DNA from: a virus
Taxonomy: Duplodnaviria; Heunggongvirae; Uroviricota; Caudoviricetes
DNA length: 9,729 nt
Reading direction: 5' to 3' (one strand)
IMG/VR virus record: IMGVR_UViG_2675903368_000011
Coordinates: 1 to 9,729 of that record
Position numbers: made by a program. Below are positions 3,001-9,000 of this stretch, piece after piece (the stretch's first letter is position 1; every line of letters starts with the position of its first letter).

Positions 3001-6000
3001 CAACAAAAAACTGGTCCGAGACATTTACTGAACGCTGGGTTGCAATGAAGCACATTTTTCTACAGCTTGATAGTGATGCTTTATTGCTTGTGACGAGAAC
3101 ACGTTCAAAACAAAAGGCAGCATTTTTACAGCAAAATATTGCAAAACTGGATTAAAAGCCATATACTTCATGCAAATTTGGTATATTGTAAAAAATGTAT
3201 AAACCCGCTGCCGAGTGGGTTTTTTTTATGCCCTGAGTTGTACTTGTACGGTAAACATGCTGGCTGCTATGTAATAGAGTTTTTTTAGCCTGTAACCTCT
3301 TGACGGCATTGAATTGCTTTTGTTATGAGTTGTAAGCCAATGTTATCATCTTGTATTGGGGTGGTTATGAAGGATGGTGCGCTGCTCAGGAGTTCTTCAC
3401 TTTTTATTGCCTACATGGGATGCCTTGGATGGGGGAGTGCTTATTTCTATGGATGGGGTACTTCTTTTTACTACGGCTTCCCATGGTGGATTGTAGGTGC
3501 AGGTGTTGATGATGTTGCCAGAAGTTTATTTTTTGCAGTTATTGTCATTGCTATATTTCTTATCGGTTGGGGTATTGGTGTTGTATTCTTTTTCGCAGTG
3601 AAAAGAAAACATTCTATGCAAGAGCTAAATGTATTTCGCCTTTATTTTGCTGTGGAATTATTGTTTGTGCCGGCAATTATTGAGTTTTCTATATTGAGAC
3701 AGAAGATTCAGGTACCTCTTTTGCTACTGTCAGCAGCGATTGCGCTGGCGGTTACAATTTCGATAAGATCTTATGGGCGATTTTTATCAGTATCATGCTT
3801 CTATGATAAGCCATTTATAAAAAAACATTTTTTTGAGATTGTGATGATTGCTTTTGTGGCATATTTTTGGCTTTTTTCATTTCTGACAGGATATTACAAA
3901 CCACAGTTTAAGAAAGAATATGAAATGATTAATTATAATGATGGTTGGTATTATGTTCTTGCTCGTTATGATAATTGTCTGGTTTTGTCTACTTCTTTCA
4001 ATGCAGGTAGTAAAAGGTTTGTCATTTATCAATCAGCACAAGATAAGAATCTTCAGGTTGATATTGTAAGGACCAGAATTTAATTGGCTGCATAAATAAT
4101 ATTTTAAGTTGCAAGTTGGCTATTCGTAGGAATAGAACCTTAGGCATGCTGAATGCGTTTTCTGAACATTGTTTTATAAACTGTGTCTGCTTGCTGTTGT
4201 GATCCTGCTTTTAGTGATGGTGATGATGGATTTCACCAGCAGGATAATGTTGGTACTGACAGATGGCGCTCTGGTCTGCGGCATTGTGGTATTGCTGTGG
4301 CCGATGATGAAAGAACAGAATGAATAATTCTTGACTTTTTTGTTTACTGTTTATTAAAAAATCAACCGCATGGTGAATCCTCCTTGGAGGGGCTAAATGA
4401 TCGAGTTTTAAGGGCACGTAGCGAGTTCTGTTTGATCATTGCAGAACTTAGCGGGAGGCGCCATGCGTACATCACTAGTGTTATTCCTTTTATCATTTTC
4501 CTTGTGAGTTCTGGCTGCGCATTGCGCAGCCTTTTTTTTATGACCTGCCACTGGCAGATGGTCATCCTGTGATTTGATTCCGCTTCCGGCTTTTTAACAC
4601 TGTTCCTCTACACGGGAGAAATTCGATGTCGATTAAACATTACGATGTTGTCAGGGCGGCGTCGCCGTCAGACCTTGCGGAAAAGCTGACACACAAACTG
4701 AAAGAGGGCTGGCAGCCATACGGCGGACCGGTTGCCATTACGCCGTACACACTGATGCAGGCGGTGGCTATTGAAGGAGAGCCACAGGTCGGCCCTTCAT
4801 CTGAGCCGGATTGGTACTACGTCATCGTACTGGCCGGGCAGTCCAATGCCATGGCTTACGGTGAAGGGCTTCCGCTGCCGGATTCATACGATGCTCCGGA
4901 TCCGCTCATTAAACAGCTGGCGCGCCGCAGTACAGTGACGCCGGGCGGGGCTGCCTGCAGATATAACGATATTATTCCGGCTGACCACTGTCTGCATGAT
5001 GTGCAGGATATGAGTACGCTGAATCATCCGAGGGCTGACCTGAGCAAAGGGCAGTACGGCTGTGTCGGTCAGGGTTTACATATTGCCAAAAAACTGCTCC
5101 CGTATATCCCGAATAACGCGGGGATCCTGCTGGTACCATGCTGTCGTGGTGGTTCGGCATTTACCCAGGGCGCGGAGGGGACATTCAGCGAGTCCACGGG
5201 GGCCAGTCAGGATTCGGCACGCTGGGGGGTGGGCAAGCCGTTATATCAGGATCTGATTTCCCGCACAAAAGCGGCATTGCAGAAAAATCCCAAAAACGTT
5301 CTGCTGGCCGTCTGCTGGATGCAGGGTGAGTTTGACATGAGCGCCGCCACCCACGCACAGCAACCTGCGCTGTTTACAGCCATGCTGACACAGTTTCGTG
5401 CTGACCTCTCCGTGTTTAACGCGCAGTGCCATGGTGGCAGTGCTGCAGATGTGCCGTGGATTTGTGGTGACACGACGTATTACTGGAAAAATACATACGC
5501 TACCCAGTACGACACCGTGTACGGCGGGTATAAAAACAGGGAGAGTGAGGGCGTTTATTTTGTGCCCTTCATGACAGAAACCCGCCGTACTTCAAAGTGA
5601 AACCCGAGGGCTGGGATAACCAGTGGGCGGGTGATGAAGATTACCTGAAGTGGCTGGACCAGTGTCTTGCGCAGTTCTGGCGGGTGCTGAAACCTGCCGG
5701 AAGTCTTTACCTGTTCTGTGGCCATCGTCTGGCATCTGACACCGAAATCATGATGCGTGAGCGGTTTAACGTGCTGAACCATATCATCTGGGCAAAGCCG
5801 TCCGGACGCTGGAACGGGTGCAACAAGGAAAGCCTGCGGGCGTATTTCCCCGCCACAGAGCGCATTCTGTTCGCAGAGCATTATCAGGGGCCGTATCGTC
5901 CGAAAGATGCCGGGTATGAGGCGAAGGGTAGGGCACTGAAACAGCATGTGATGGCCCCGCTGATTGCTTACTTTCGTGATGCGCGCGCTGTCCTGGGGAT

Positions 6001-9000
6001 AACGGCAAAACAGATTGCAGATGCCACAGGAAAGAAAAACATGGTGTCGCACTGGTTCAGTGCCGGTCAGTGGCAGCTGCCGAACGAAAGCGATTATCTG
6101 AAATTACAGGCACTGTTTGCCCGGGTGGCAGAAGAGAAGCATCAGCGGGGTGAACTGGAAAAGCCCCACCACCAGCTGGTGGATACGTATGCCTCTCTGA
6201 ACCGACAGTATGCGGAGCTGCAGAGTGAATATAAGCATCTGCGGCGGTATTTTGGTGTGACGGCGCAGGTGCCGTACACGGATGTGTGGACACATAAACC
6301 GGTGCAGTTCTATCCCGGGAAACATCCGTGCGAAAAACCGGCAGAAATGCTGCAGCAGATAATCAGCGCAAGCAGTCGTCCGGGTGACCTGGTTGCAGAT
6401 TTTTTTATGGGCTCAGGTTCAACGGTAAAAGCGGCACTGGCGCTCGGGCGTCGTGCAATTGGCGTTGAGCTGGAGACTGAACGTTTTGAGCAGACAGTCA
6501 GGGAAGTTCAGGATTTAATCGTTTGAAACGGATGAGATTGCAGAATTAATTTCGCACCATTATTATTCTGGTCCCGGCCCTTTAGCTCAGTGGTGAGAGC
6601 GAGCGACTCATAATCGCCAGGTCGCTGGTTCAAATCCAGCAAGGGCCACCATCACATACCGCCATTAGCTTATCAGGAAGAGCAGACGACACCATAACAG
6701 GGTTGTTGGTGCGGGGGCGGGTCCCCGATGGCGGTCCATTATCGGTATTCTGCGTTGTTAGCTCAGCCGGACAGAGCAATTGCCTTCTAAGCAATCGGTC
6801 AGTGGTTCGACTCCACTACAACGCGCCACACTTATTTTCCAGGCTCGCTTCGGCGGGCCTTTTTTGTATCTGCGCCACGCCCGGTGCATATCAACCACAG
6901 AGCCTTTCGGGGGTGAGCTTACGGAGTGGTCAGTGTGACTTTCTCTGTGGGCAGATCGCTCCCGGGCGTTGGCTCACCCACCCAAAGGAACGTCACGATG
7001 TTTGGTATTTTTGGTAAAAAAAGCCCGCAGAGCGGCAACGGAAATTAAAAAGTTTGAAAAACGCGATCTGGCACAGGTGGTGATTAACGCCGCATACCTG
7101 GTGGCCTGTGCAGATGGTGAATGTGAGGCTTCCTAGAAAGCGAAGATCGAACAGGTACTGCGTAATCAGCCTGCGCTGTCCGCGTTTACGTCAGAAATTA
7201 ATGCGATTAGCGCAACCATTATCGGTCAGCTGGATACGAACTTTAAAATTGGTCGTCGTGCGGCGTTACGTGAGATCGAGGATGTGAAACACGATACGCG
7301 TGAAGCGGAAGATGTGCTGGATGTGGCGGTGGCCATTGCGGAGGCAGACGGCGAAATTGAGCCGGAAGAGCGCAAGGTGCTGGAAGAGATTGCCGGTGTT
7401 CTGGGTCTTCGTCTGGAGAATCACCTGTGACGGTAAAACTGCGCCTGACTGTGGCTGCACTCCTGCTGTTTCTGGTGGTGATGGTGGATTTCACCAGCAG
7501 AATCATGTCGGTGCTGGCGGATGGGGTGCTGGTCTGCGGCATTGTGGTATTGCTGTGGCCGGTGATAAAAAGAAACAGCCTGCATAATGCTTGATTTTTT
7601 TGTTTGCTGTTTATTAAAAACACTTCTGCATGGTGAATCCCCCTGTGCGGAGGGGCAATCAGCGAGTAGGTATATGGGATAATCGCGGATTCAGGTGCTG
7701 GTACTGAATTCACCGGGAGGCACCCGGCACCATGCTTTGCCACAAAAGTGTTATTTCTGTTTTTCTCAAACTATCATCGTTATCCCTTTATTTCCGGCTG
7801 CGCATGGCGCGGCCTTTTTTTTACGACCAGCCACTGGCAGATGGTCATCCTGTGATTTGATTCCGGTTCCGGCTTTTTAACTCTGTTCCTGTACACGGGA
7901 GAAATTCGATGTCGATTAAACATTATGATGTTGTCAGGGCGGCGTCGCCGTCAGACCTTGCGGAAAAGCTGACACACAAACTGAAAGAGGGCTGGCAGCC
8001 GTTTGGTAGTCCGGTGGCCATAACCCCTTATACCCTGATGCAGGCGATTGCAGCAGAAGGTGATGTGGTGGTCAGTGGTGCAACTGAGCCGGATTGGTAC
8101 TACGTCATCGTACTGGCCGGGCAGTCCAATGCAATGGCTTACGGGGAAGGGCTTCCGCTTCCGGATTCATACGATGCTCCGGATCCGCGCATTAAACAGC
8201 TGGCGCGCCGCAGTACAGTTACGCCGGGTGGGGCTGCCTGCAGATATAACGATATTATTCCGGCCGACCACTGCCTGCATGATGTGCAGGATATGAGTAC
8301 GCTGAATCATCCGAAGGCAGACCTGAGCAAAGGGCAGTACGGCTGTGTCGGCCAGGGCTTACATATTGCCAAAAAACTGCTTCCGTATATCCCGAATAAC
8401 GCGGGGATCCTGCTGGTACCATGCTGTCGTGGTGGTTCTGCATTCACCCAGGGCGCTGAGGGGACATTCAGTGCGGACACGGGGGCCAGCCAGGATTCGG
8501 CACGCTGGGGTGTGGGTAAACCGTTATATCAGGACCTGATTGCGCGCACTAAAGCTGCATTACAGAAGAACCCGAAAAATGTGTTGCTGGCGGTGTGCTG
8601 GATGCAGGGAGAGTTTGACATGAGCGCCGCCACCCACGCACAGCAACCTGCGCTGTTTACAGCCATGCTGACACAGTTTCGTGCTGACCTCTCCGTGTTT
8701 AACGCGCAGTGCCATGGTGGCAGTGCTGCAGATGTGCCGTGGATTTGTGGTGACACGACGTATTACTGGAAAAATACATACGCTACCCAGTACGACACCG
8801 TGTACGGCGGGTATAAAAACAGGGAGAGTGAGGGCGTTTATTTTGTGCCCTTCATGACAGACGGTAACGGCGTCAATACCGCCACTAACGCGCCGGCAGA
8901 AGATCCGGATATTCCGGCATCAGGATATTACGGTGCGGCATCGAGAACGAATGGAAACCAGGTATCATCAAACCGCCCGACACATTTCAGTTCATGGGCG

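Follow-up and report, generated by a model that had tools for sequence, protein, structure and literature searches.

The closest described relatives of the elements reported here are prophage sRNAs of the PasD / STnc100 family. PasD2 is an Hfq-associated sRNA of EPEC E2348/69; Northern blotting as well as RIL-seq confirmed it in that strain (Pearl Mizrahi et al. 2021, PMC8550237). It gave a Northern band at the predicted size and was abundant in uninduced cultures (baseMean ~11,000). Its RIL-seq chimeras, formed with many mRNAs, fall in the 3' part that holds the seed and terminator, and UGUGAG is complementary to CUCACA, the motif of the targets (PMC8550237). The PasD2 5' end was placed by RNA-seq coverage, not by a primary-end method, and could be a processing site. 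The Hfq dependence of PasD stability is less clear than the text of that paper states, because neither PasD1 nor PasD2 falls significantly in its hfq mutant RNA-seq table (log2 change +0.55 and -0.18). The EHEC homologues EcOnc13 and EcOnc27/sRNA103 bind Hfq, and EcOnc27/sRNA103 is an STnc100 family member located downstream of stx2B. Eleven STnc100 copies are annotated in EDL933, mostly transcribed, one of them verified by Northern blot.

The same moron site, between cargo gene and nanS-p, is occupied by the AsxR and AgvB anti-sRNAs (Tree et al. 2014, PMC4104026), which in other phages are convergent partners of STnc100-type RNAs. They are 51-60 nt long, lie on the opposite strand and have no sequence relation to the units described below. 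Another known system is the lambdoid pR'-qut-tR' unit (lambda 6S RNA, phage 82 pR'), in which, as in our units, a constitutive promoter produces a short terminated RNA before the late genes. We analysed a window of 9,729 nucleotides, positions 1 to 9,729 of the Caudoviricetes record IMGVR_UViG_2675903368_000011.

Two copies of a prophage sRNA family

The window carries two homologous cassettes, 4169-4625 (unit A) and 7427-7908 (unit B). Both have the order DUF3927 ORF, TTGAYT-17-TTAAAA promoter, RNA of 172 or 195 nt, GC hairpin with T8, and 86 nt nanS-p leader. A pattern search for TTGAYT-N17-TTAAAA returned exactly two matches, 4331-4359 and 7591-7619, with 0.01 expected by chance. The finding is real but ordinary: both units are copies of the described PasD / STnc100 family.

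Features of unit A:
4169..4327, + strand: small ORF A, 52 aa, DUF3927 / TciB-like membrane protein (Pfam PF13064, E 3e-14; TciB in the phage 434 annotation)
4331..4360, + strand: sRNA A promoter, -35 TTGACT at 4331-4336 and -10 region TTAAAA(A) at 4354-4360 (pattern search)
4368..4539, + strand: sRNA A, PasD2, 172 nt (identity to PasD2; our own covariance model, 50.9 bits; folding)
4368-4466, + strand: 5' structured domain of sRNA A
4467-4512, + strand: U-rich linker of sRNA A, with the published seed UGUGAG at 4503-4508
4513-4531, + strand: terminator hairpin of sRNA A, followed by U8
4540..4625, + strand: nanS-p leader A, 86 nt (94% identical to copy B; hairpin 4540-4565 by folding)

Features of unit B:
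7427..7594, + strand: small ORF B, 55 aa, DUF3927 / TciB-like (Pfam PF13064, E 3e-17)
7591..7620, + strand: sRNA B promoter, -35 TTGATT at 7591-7596 and -10 region TTAAAA(A) at 7614-7620 (pattern search, family comparison)
7628..7822, + strand: sRNA B, STnc100-type RNA, 195 nt (Rfam RF02076; our own model, 118 bits; putative 5' end from PasD2 homology)
7628-7735, + strand: 5' domain of sRNA B with P1, P2, variable region, P4 and P5
7736-7795, + strand: U-rich linker of sRNA B, 60 nt
7796-7814, + strand: terminator of sRNA B, followed by U8
7823..7908, + strand: nanS-p leader B, 86 nt (comparison with copy A)

A preliminary description of this DNA had listed promoters, leaders, terminators and nanS-p copies, all of which are present where it placed them, as is a small ORF ahead of each unit. 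Its leader length of 150-210 nt agrees with RNAs of 172 nt (A) and 195 nt (B) when the 5' end is taken from the identical PasD2 gene. The stop codon of small ORF B overlaps the -35 element of promoter B. Between A and B, identity is 74% in the small ORF, 81% in the promoter and 85% over the first 20 nt of the RNA. As had been proposed, the terminators (25/27) and the stretch leading to the ATG (81 of its 86 nt) are near-identical, and the first 952 nt of nanS-p are 92.5% identical. The two RNA bodies had been described as strongly diverged, and at 58% identity with indels they are; they are nevertheless still homologous, with helices P1, P2 and P4 common to both. In leader A the Shine-Dalgarno region GGGAGA precedes the ATG at 4626.

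Unit A is identical to PasD2 over 172/172 nt (NC_011601 741157-741328; coordinates from PMC8550237 Table S6), with the same promoter and the same UGUGAG seed. The promoter A sequence is likewise identical upstream of PasD1 and PasD2 in E2348/69. A neighbourhood of Q antiterminator and LpxR has been used as a criterion for PasD (Zhu, Shabalina and Storz 2026, bioRxiv 10.64898/2026.05.13.724894); Pfam places LpxR at 1032-1991 (-) and Q at 2466-3155 (+) in the window. The remaining neighbours of PasD2 also recur around unit A, and the order Q (Q82 family), membrane ORF, DUF3927, PasD2, SASA esterase is common to E2348/69 PP2 and phage 434. Against the Rfam STnc100 model unit A scores 41.4 bits (E 2e-06), under the curated gathering threshold of 47 bits at or above which we count a sequence as a member, and by that rule it is a below-threshold relative. 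In covariance model alignment it keeps P1, P2 and P4 and has lost P5.

Unit B scores 101.5 bits (E 9e-22) against RF02076 and is an STnc100 member by the same rule. All four helices are present, with long-range P1 closing around hairpins P2, P4 and P5. The model, which starts ~29 nt upstream of the PasD2-type 5' end and so includes the -10 region, matches the whole 5' part of unit B; the match stops at 7771 because the 3' tail and terminator differ from the consensus. The late-operon position upstream of nanS-p is the same as for STnc100. Near-identity to PasD, found for unit A, does not extend to unit B (58% in the body), whose resemblance to PasD is confined to the 5' domain (P1, P2, P4) and parts of the linker; in unit B helix P5 is additional, the linker is longer, and UUUAUU stands at the position aligned with the UGUGAG that lies just 5' of the unit A terminator. 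Since its linker is different and has no UGUGAG seed, the two paralogs should differ in their targets. An identical copy of unit B occurs in another IMG/VR locus (L056). The preliminary description had offered a short terminated RNA of sRNA type as its second choice, and this proved correct; PasD2 (unit A) and STnc100 (unit B) had already been published.

Both units end in an 8 bp GC-rich hairpin plus U8, GGCTGCGCATTGCGCAGCC followed by T8 at 4513-4539 in A and GGCTGCGCATGGCGCGGCC followed by T8 at 7796-7822 in B. An A-to-G change in the 3' arm of the B hairpin converts one T-A pair into the T-G wobble noted earlier; this terminator allele is also carried by PasD1 of E2348/69. The linkers of 46 nt (A) and 60 nt (B) are U-rich and predicted by folding to be open, and both units thus show the layout of Hfq-type sRNAs, in which a terminator with a long U tail follows a U-rich single-stranded stretch. 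No Rfam match to AsxR or AgvB was found in the window at E up to 1, and the units are without the convergent AsxR/AgvB partner seen in Sp5.

A conserved 5' domain with exchangeable tails

Mildly new is that the 5' domain of this family, which is widely conserved and supported by covariation, is combined with 3' tails that can be exchanged. Across 28 phage copies, 95.8% of cells are paired, compared with 40-47% in slid controls. In 83 copies from other Enterobacterales the figure is 92% compared with 36-51%, and 20 of the 25 pairs have changes on both sides. Conservation is much stronger in the 5' domain than in the 3' part. Every promoter class of the family has a T-TAAAA block at -14..-8; the -10 region, TTAAAA/TAAAAA, matches the consensus poorly, and a generic promoter scan left it unlisted. 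We also note that a simple base-pairing role leaves the strong conservation of the 5' domain unexplained.

A census of 126 family members places them in late or moron contexts, always in sense orientation within late operons, and the units of the window conform, lying in sense upstream of nanS-p or lysis genes. A classic leader runs in the same order, from promoter through a conserved structured domain and a terminator to the gene; ~70% of sampled members lie directly upstream of nanS-p, and the unpaired core nucleotides of the domain are almost invariant across genera. The units might therefore be read as cis-acting, attenuator- or riboswitch-like leaders of nanS-p whose 5' domain senses a signal and switches the terminator. 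We consider this very improbable: an expression platform is not conserved, with at least 15 unrelated linker/terminator cassettes following the same 5' domain, and inspection revealed no alternative pairing of the domain with the terminators of the window. Moreover, PasD1 lies ahead of a holin gene with nanS-p deleted, domains in Pantoea occur in arrays without a downstream gene of the nanS-p kind, and the terminated product is plentiful, with chimeras to many mRNAs on Hfq.

The sense orientation inside late operons and the superior conservation of the domain also bear on a different cis role, in which the domain would be a put-like processive antiterminator or an RNA stabiliser and not part of a trans-acting sRNA. 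We give this very little credence. Accumulation of the terminated RNA shows that its own terminator is not overridden. We compared the units with phage HK022, which carries the put sites. Both systems place a structured RNA close to a phage promoter, but put RNAs suppress termination whereas the unit RNAs end at their own terminator, and no sequence or structure similarity is detectable between them. The 5' domain covariance model gave only chance-level hits on HK022 (best E 0.37, inside a coding region), and Rfam found no match in its 27-38 kb interval.

It is extremely unlikely that the units encode small proteins. ORFs exist at 4384-4572 and 7732-7860, an ATG preceded by GGGAGG lies inside helix P1, the phage 434 record annotates one such ORF, lying over PasD, as a 'putative membrane protein' of 62 aa, and some EDL933 STnc100 copies show ribosome footprints. 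Yet the ATG and GGGAGG are both within conserved helices and, compared by eye, the ORFs that follow the ATG are wholly different in length and sequence among tail classes, with 14 codons from the P1 ATG in unit A.

The late promoter adjoins Q

The preliminary description had favoured two late pR'/tR'-type units, perhaps differing in antiterminator specificity. This interpretation is not supported; the real late promoter of this phage is the unit at 3139-3231, outside both cassettes and directly after the Q gene.

Late promoter unit:
3139..3231, + strand: true late promoter unit (promoter, terminator and pause-element scans)

It has a -35 element TTGCAA at 3139-3144 and, at a spacing of 17, a -10 element TATACT at 3162-3167, which point to a start (+1) near 3174. 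A TG-extended, -10-like pause element, TGgTATATT, follows at 3179-3187 (+6..+14, with TATATT at +9..+14), and then the tR' hairpin at 3201-3222 plus T8 (3201-3231 in the terminator scan); a terminator is annotated in phage 434. The short pR' RNA would be ~58 nt. Homology with other Q82-family phages ends just past the pause element. The Q protein belongs to PF06323, the phage 82 family (Pfam), and its gene is the only Q gene in the window. The architecture of 3139-3231 matches the published 82 pR' (PMC5001585).

Units A and B resemble lambda pR'-6S-tR' in having a promoter, a short RNA and a strong terminator ahead of late genes, and both point toward nanS-p and lysis genes. The short pR' transcript can reportedly double as an sRNA, as in work on StxS. 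On this view each unit would combine a Q-dependent late promoter, a qut site and a terminator of tR' type, the two units would answer to different antiterminators, and the short RNAs would be 6S-like by-products. This is highly improbable given the complete 82-type pR', pause element and tR' beside the single Q gene. Unlike lambdoid pR'-qut-tR', the units carry no sigma70 pause element, lie apart from Q and vary independently of the Q family. The pause-element scan found no -10-like element in the first 28 transcribed bases (+1..+28) of either unit; a weak AATGAT at +29 of unit A is not common to B. The units lie 1.2 and 4.5 kb past the Q stop codon. In E2348/69 prophage PP4 the identical PasD promoter occurs downstream of an unrelated lambda-type Q (PF03589) that has its own lambda-like pR'. 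An upstream Q was identifiable for 80 of the 126 family members (23 PF06323, 36 PF03589 and 21 PF06530), and the family thus stands behind three unrelated Q families, 0.8-5.2 kb from the Q gene start. In VT2-Sakai STnc100 lies 75 nt after stx2B, and the annotated pR'/qut/tR' adjoining Q is a separate element ~2 kb away.

A junction within nanS-p

Features of the junction and its surroundings:
4626..5600, + strand: nanS-p copy A, truncated, with DUF1737 and SASA domains present (Pfam; BLAST and sequence comparison for the breakpoint)
5579..6526, + strand: N6/N4 DNA methylase, 5'-truncated, beginning at the (D/N)PPY motif (Pfam PF01555 from profile position 21)
6576-6651, + strand: tRNA(CAT) (ARAGORN, Rfam)
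6752-6828, + strand: tRNA-Arg(TCT) (ARAGORN, Rfam)
6841-6860, + strand: terminator plus T-run after the tRNAs, in block 6576..6866 (terminator scan)
7909..9729, + strand: nanS-p copy B, continuing beyond the end of the window, with DUF1737, SASA and DUF6645 (Pfam)

The nanS-p modules had been described as tandem. They do have the same orientation, but the two units did not arise by tandem duplication in situ; there is a junction at 5578/5579. Window positions 1-5578 are 99.7% phage 434. Homology of copy A to intact nanS-p ends at 5578, after which the frame reaches a stop, and nanS-p (codon ~318) is there fused to a 5'-truncated DNA methylase gene from a different lambdoid moron region; an intact methylase relative has ~31 more codons. 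The methylase is the right-hand partner of the recombination junction, and the apparent tandem layout is a join, inside nanS-p, between a phage-434-like late region and the moron region of another lambdoid phage. The window holds two units because a 434-like and a second lambdoid phage, with one cassette each, were joined at this point. The tRNA block at 6576..6866 is usual for lambdoid moron regions.

A model for the two units

We consider it very likely that each unit is a free-standing sRNA gene of the PasD/STnc100 family, located within the moron part of a lambdoid late operon and just upstream of nanS-p. Sequence identity, family membership, structure, context and the location of pR' are observations on the window and its relatives; expression, size and Hfq association come from the literature on PasD2, a sequence identical to unit A. 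A sigma70 promoter (TTGAYT, then T-TAAAA ~8-14 bp before the putative start) would drive each RNA. The first ~100 nt are predicted to fold as the conserved domain of several helices, which a long-range helix closes, and the remainder would form the unstructured U-rich linker and the strong intrinsic terminator with its U8 tail, the usual layout for Hfq binding.

In the lysogen, the RNAs may be constitutive and terminated, probably acting in trans on host and island mRNAs (a role that for unit B is presumed), while the terminators would keep nanS-p and the lysis genes silent. Upon induction, polymerase starting at pR' near 3174 would be modified by the Q82-family Q protein and may read through tR' at 3201-3231 and then the terminators of both sRNAs and of the tRNA block, allowing expression of nanS-p and the late genes. 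The terminators of the units and of lambdoid pR'-qut-tR' are alike in that Q-modified polymerase would have to read through them. Consistent with read-through from pR', mitomycin C raises nanS-p expression 10- to 250-fold, in parallel with stx2a (PMC10462455).

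Gene layout and the two repeated cassettes

ORF listing, Pfam and BLAST identify the window as the late-regulatory region of a lambdoid prophage, in which two cassettes, units A and B, stand before two copies of nanS-p.

Features of the window (coordinates, strand, description)
155-820, +, NinI-type phosphatase
817-876, +, lambda-type Q remnant, 20 codons
1032-1991, -, LpxR lipid A deacylase
2466-3155, +, Q protein, phage 82 family (PF06323)
3325-4083, +, membrane ORF
4169-4327, +, first DUF3927 ORF (Pfam)
4331-4539, +, unit A
4626-5600, +, nanS-p, truncated
5579-6526, +, DNA methylase, 5'-truncated
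6576-6866, +, two tRNAs and a terminator
6998-7430, +, TerB/TciA gene, disrupted
7427-7594, +, second DUF3927 ORF (Pfam)
7591-7822, +, unit B
7909 onward, +, nanS-p, full

The preliminary description had recognised two modules of small ORF, promoter, leader and terminator, and these are present as described. The window contains exactly two matches to the promoter TTGAYT-N17-TTAAAA, at 4331 and 7591 (0.01 expected), each preceded by a small ORF that Pfam assigns to DUF3927. The GC-rich hairpins with T8 lie at 4513-4539 and 7796-7822, and the T-G wobble in the second is present. The divergence of the leaders between conserved flanks also holds: the RNA bodies are 58% identical between copies, compared with 25 of 27 terminator positions, and the sequence ahead of the esterase gene is nearly the same in both (86 nt leader 94%, nanS-p 92.5%).

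Between the two units, the TerB/TciA gene (6998-7430) is a pseudogene: its frame is shifted in the A-run near 7017-7024 and interrupted by a TAG at 7134-7136. Its C-terminal part still matches Pfam TerB. The tRNA at 6576-6651 has the anticodon CAT and is called Met, and its Stx-phage homologue is annotated as tRNA-Ile. With tRNA-Arg(TCT) at 6752-6828, the window has two tRNAs, compared with three in VT2-Sakai.

Identity as PasD/STnc100 small RNAs

Sequence comparison shows that window positions 4368-4539 are identical at 172 of 172 positions to PasD2, a small RNA (sRNA) of EPEC E2348/69 (NC_011601 741157-741328). The promoter of unit A is also unchanged at that locus, and the flanks differ at just two bases, of which one lies in the small ORF and the other in the nanS-p leader. 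Unit B scores 101.5 bits against the Rfam family STnc100 (RF02076; threshold 47), for which unit A scores 41.4 bits. The identity of unit A to PasD2, together with the Rfam scores, places both units in, or close to, a described sRNA family, and it is thus the sRNA-type alternative in the preliminary description that is borne out. By homology to PasD2, the RNA of unit B would be 195 nt long (7628-7822).

PasD2 lies between a DUF3927 ORF and a SASA esterase (PMC8550237, Table S6). Northern analysis detects it at the predicted size, and it is highly abundant without induction; its Hfq RIL-seq chimeras are located in the 3' seed and terminator part, and its target motif, CUCACA, is complementary to UGUGAG, found at window positions 4503-4508 (PMC8550237). 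PasD levels do not fall in RNA-seq of an hfq mutant (PMC8550237). Homologues in EHEC are EcOnc13 and EcOnc27/sRNA103, the latter directly downstream of stx2B, and EDL933 has 11 annotated STnc100 copies, most of them transcribed and one confirmed by Northern analysis. PasD and STnc100 have already been called structural homologues, and the linkage of PasD to Q, LpxR and the esterase gene has already been noted (Zhu, Shabalina and Storz 2026). The original observation is therefore real and well described, and amounts to a rediscovery of the PasD/STnc100 family.

The units could also be read as small-protein genes. We reject this interpretation, as coding is not conserved between the classes of 3' tail found in the family: the ORFs vary from one class to another when the tail sequences are read by eye. 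In phage 434, a 62 aa 'putative membrane protein' is annotated at OL657226 43214-43402 (5876-6064 of database locus L002), corresponding to window 4384-4572. This ORF falls wholly within the PasD sRNA and its terminator and is probably a mis-annotation. Other Rfam matches in the window (asX2, SorX, Plastid-ycf2, STnc240, and STnc100 at 6767-6871) score far under the threshold and coincide with terminators or a tRNA; we set them aside as chance.

Knowledge of this locus is not altered by the finding. In practical terms, the appropriate annotation for the units is as sRNA genes, PasD2 for unit A and an STnc100 variant for unit B, rather than as late promoters or small membrane proteins. STnc100/PasD is among the most frequently annotated enterobacterial sRNA families, and in pathogenic E. 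coli it adjoins both stx and nanS-p.

The late promoter and independence from Q type

A promoter scan finds a late promoter after the Q stop codon (TTGCAA-17-TATACT, 3139-3167). It is accompanied by a TG-extended -10-like hexamer (TGgTATATT) at +6 to +14 of the inferred start and by a terminator at 3201-3222 plus T8, so placed that the pR' RNA would be about 58 nt long. At 82 pR', the polymerase recognises an extended -10-like pause element once its transcript is about 21 nt long, and it pauses at +25 (PMC5001585). The architecture of window 3139-3231 is that published for phage 82 pR' (PMC5001585). Other phages with Q82-family proteins have the same stretch as the window through the pause element and then diverge. 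As the phage 82 record ends within Q, the comparison with 82 pR' runs via the Q82-family relative PPompW and the published description. Rfam reports a weak, below-threshold STnc240 match in 3139-3231.

The preliminary description had favoured late units of pR'/tR' type for the two cassettes. On this point the evidence goes against it: the match to 82 pR' is the stretch after Q, not unit A or unit B, and no -10-like element is present in the first 28 transcribed bases of either unit. The units also lie away from Q, and their relatives are found with differing Q families. Among 126 family members from IMG/VR, an upstream Q could be identified in 80 (23 PF06323, 36 PF03589 and 21 PF06530), and family members are located 0.8-5.2 kb from the start of the Q gene. 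In VT2-Sakai, where Q is of the PF06530 family, the annotated late promoter, qut and terminator adjoin Q, whereas STnc100 lies 75 nt past stx2B, with a convergent AsxR behind it.

The E2348/69 prophage PP4 has a Q of the lambda family (PF03589), followed by a lambda-like pR'. From the terminator onward, PP4 is again homologous to the window, with the same membrane ORF and DUF3927 ORF and then PasD1, the promoter of which is identical to the window's. Immediately preceding the LpxR insertion in the window is the lambda-type Q remnant (817-876), which is 100% identical to the Q of PP4. This remnant indicates a joint exchange of Q and pR' that left the sRNA cassette in place; in this phage, an LpxR and Q82-type block took over their position. 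The absent pause element, the position and the independence from Q family led us to reject a Q-dependent promoter and argue strongly against units A and B being Q-specific late promoters. The late promoter of this phage should instead be placed at 3139-3231.

Proposed roles in lysogeny and induction

We propose that in the lysogen each unit would be transcribed from its own promoter and stop at its own terminator, yielding a stable and probably trans-acting sRNA (for unit B, we infer this). The unit terminators would shield nanS-p and the lysis genes. Upon induction, Q-modified polymerase from pR' would be expected to pass all four terminators of the window. The transcription start sites of pR' and of the units in this scheme are predicted ones. 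Expression of nanS-p rises 10- to 250-fold with mitomycin C, in parallel to stx2a (PMC10462455), which fits read-through from pR' after induction.

Given their location, the units might alternatively be cis-acting leaders of nanS-p. This is unlikely, because the 3' cassettes are not conserved, PasD1 stands before a holin, and the terminated RNA is abundant. The possibility that they are put-like antiterminator elements found no support and was rejected: on phage HK022, both Rfam and a covariance model built from the 5' domain gave matches at chance level, the best of them inside a coding region.

A covarying 5' domain with exchangeable tails

Considered as sRNAs, the family members have in common a 5' domain of about 100 nt, present in both units. 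It is closed by helix P1 (GCAUGGUG/CACCAUGC in the window), inside which are, in order, hairpin P2, a hypervariable insert, hairpin P4 and hairpin P5, the last abutting the 3' strand of P1. Across phage copies (n=28), 95.8% of cells are paired versus 40-47% in slid controls, with compensatory changes mostly in P4. A cross-genus sample of 83 copies from more than 60 Enterobacterales species gives 92% versus 36-51%, changes on both sides in 20 of 25 pairs (316 cells) and a covariation score of 0.41 versus at most 0.09 when slid; this alignment was fitted to the model with P5 set by the search pattern, so that the informative helices are P1, P2 and P4. PasD retains these three helices and has lost P5. 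More than 60 Enterobacterales species show almost no variation in the unpaired core (GGUGAAUCCCCC..GCGG.GGGG and UCACCGGGAGGCACCCGGCACC). The minimum-energy fold of unit B as a single sequence differs from the family fold (z = -1.5), and we therefore used the comparative structure.

At least 15 unrelated linker and terminator cassettes occur 3' of the 5' domain, two of them in the window. For both units, folding predicts an open U-rich linker and then the terminator, the usual Hfq-binding arrangement. Plasmid pAPP145_2 of Pantoea sp. App145 (database locus L179, 947-1988, - strand) carries the 5' domain in arrays, as do loci L165, L176 and L178. The L179 arrays form two blocks that resemble transcription units; in each, three abutting domains, separated by 10-55 nt, share a single terminator. 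By eye, the array terminator is very similar to the tRNA terminator of the window (6841-6860). An origin of the domain in tRNA operons was dropped, as a tRNA is found within 600 nt of just 6 of the 143 copies from other genera.

The PasD/STnc100 literature searched assigns no function to the 5' domain. We raise, as a rather unlikely interpretation, that it is an autonomous functional RNA module with a role other than base-pairing. Pointing in this direction are the helix covariation and almost invariant unpaired core, the variety of tails and triple Pantoea arrays, and the abundance of PasD without a drop in the hfq mutant; the core, arrays and hfq-mutant levels are compatible with a role beyond base-pairing, which they allow but do not show. 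Such a module might bind a protein, the ribosome or polymerase, or it might be a stable RNA released by processing; differing 3' seed and terminator tails may have been grafted onto it. The modular picture of a covarying 5' domain, exchangeable 3' tails and occasional arrays provides a concrete experimental handle.

Many IMG/VR copies of STnc100 have a second class of promoter upstream, in which a conserved block, CTCACAATTCAG..GTTGACnGTTGyCTG, is combined with an extended -10, TGTTAAAAG. Inverted repeats lie within the block, as does CUCACA, the same motif as the published PasD target.

Origin of the two copies

Up to position 5578 the window is 99.7% identical to phage 434, and the sequence from 5580 has 97-99% matches to other lambdoid moron regions. 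At the junction (5578/5579), a 434-like nanS-p is fused at about codon 318, out of frame, to a methylase at its (D/N)PPY motif, with about 31 methylase codons lost and a few bases of microhomology. From this junction we conclude that units A and B are cassettes of two phages joined by illegitimate recombination, not a local duplication. The junction was not found in 5,426 complete E. coli genomes, 50,697 phage records, 120 IMG/VR loci and the GTDB representative genomes.

Independent of this junction, adjacent STnc100 paralogs are common in IMG/VR prophage contigs. Two full STnc100 genes in direct tandem, about 468 nt apart, are seen at database loci L010, L019 (811-1001 and 1279-1488), L020, L029, L042 and L076.

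A hairpin, ATGACCTGCCACTGGCAGATGGTCAT (4540-4565 and 7823-7848), opens the nanS-p leader directly 3' of both sRNA terminators and is kept in both window copies and in PasD1. In PP4, the 86 nt leader is also present behind PasD1, along with roughly the first 15 nt of nanS-p; beyond this point the sequence diverges and a holin comes next (about 4020-4045 of database locus L124, NC_011601 1056500-1062500). This sequence is the scar of a nanS-p deletion.
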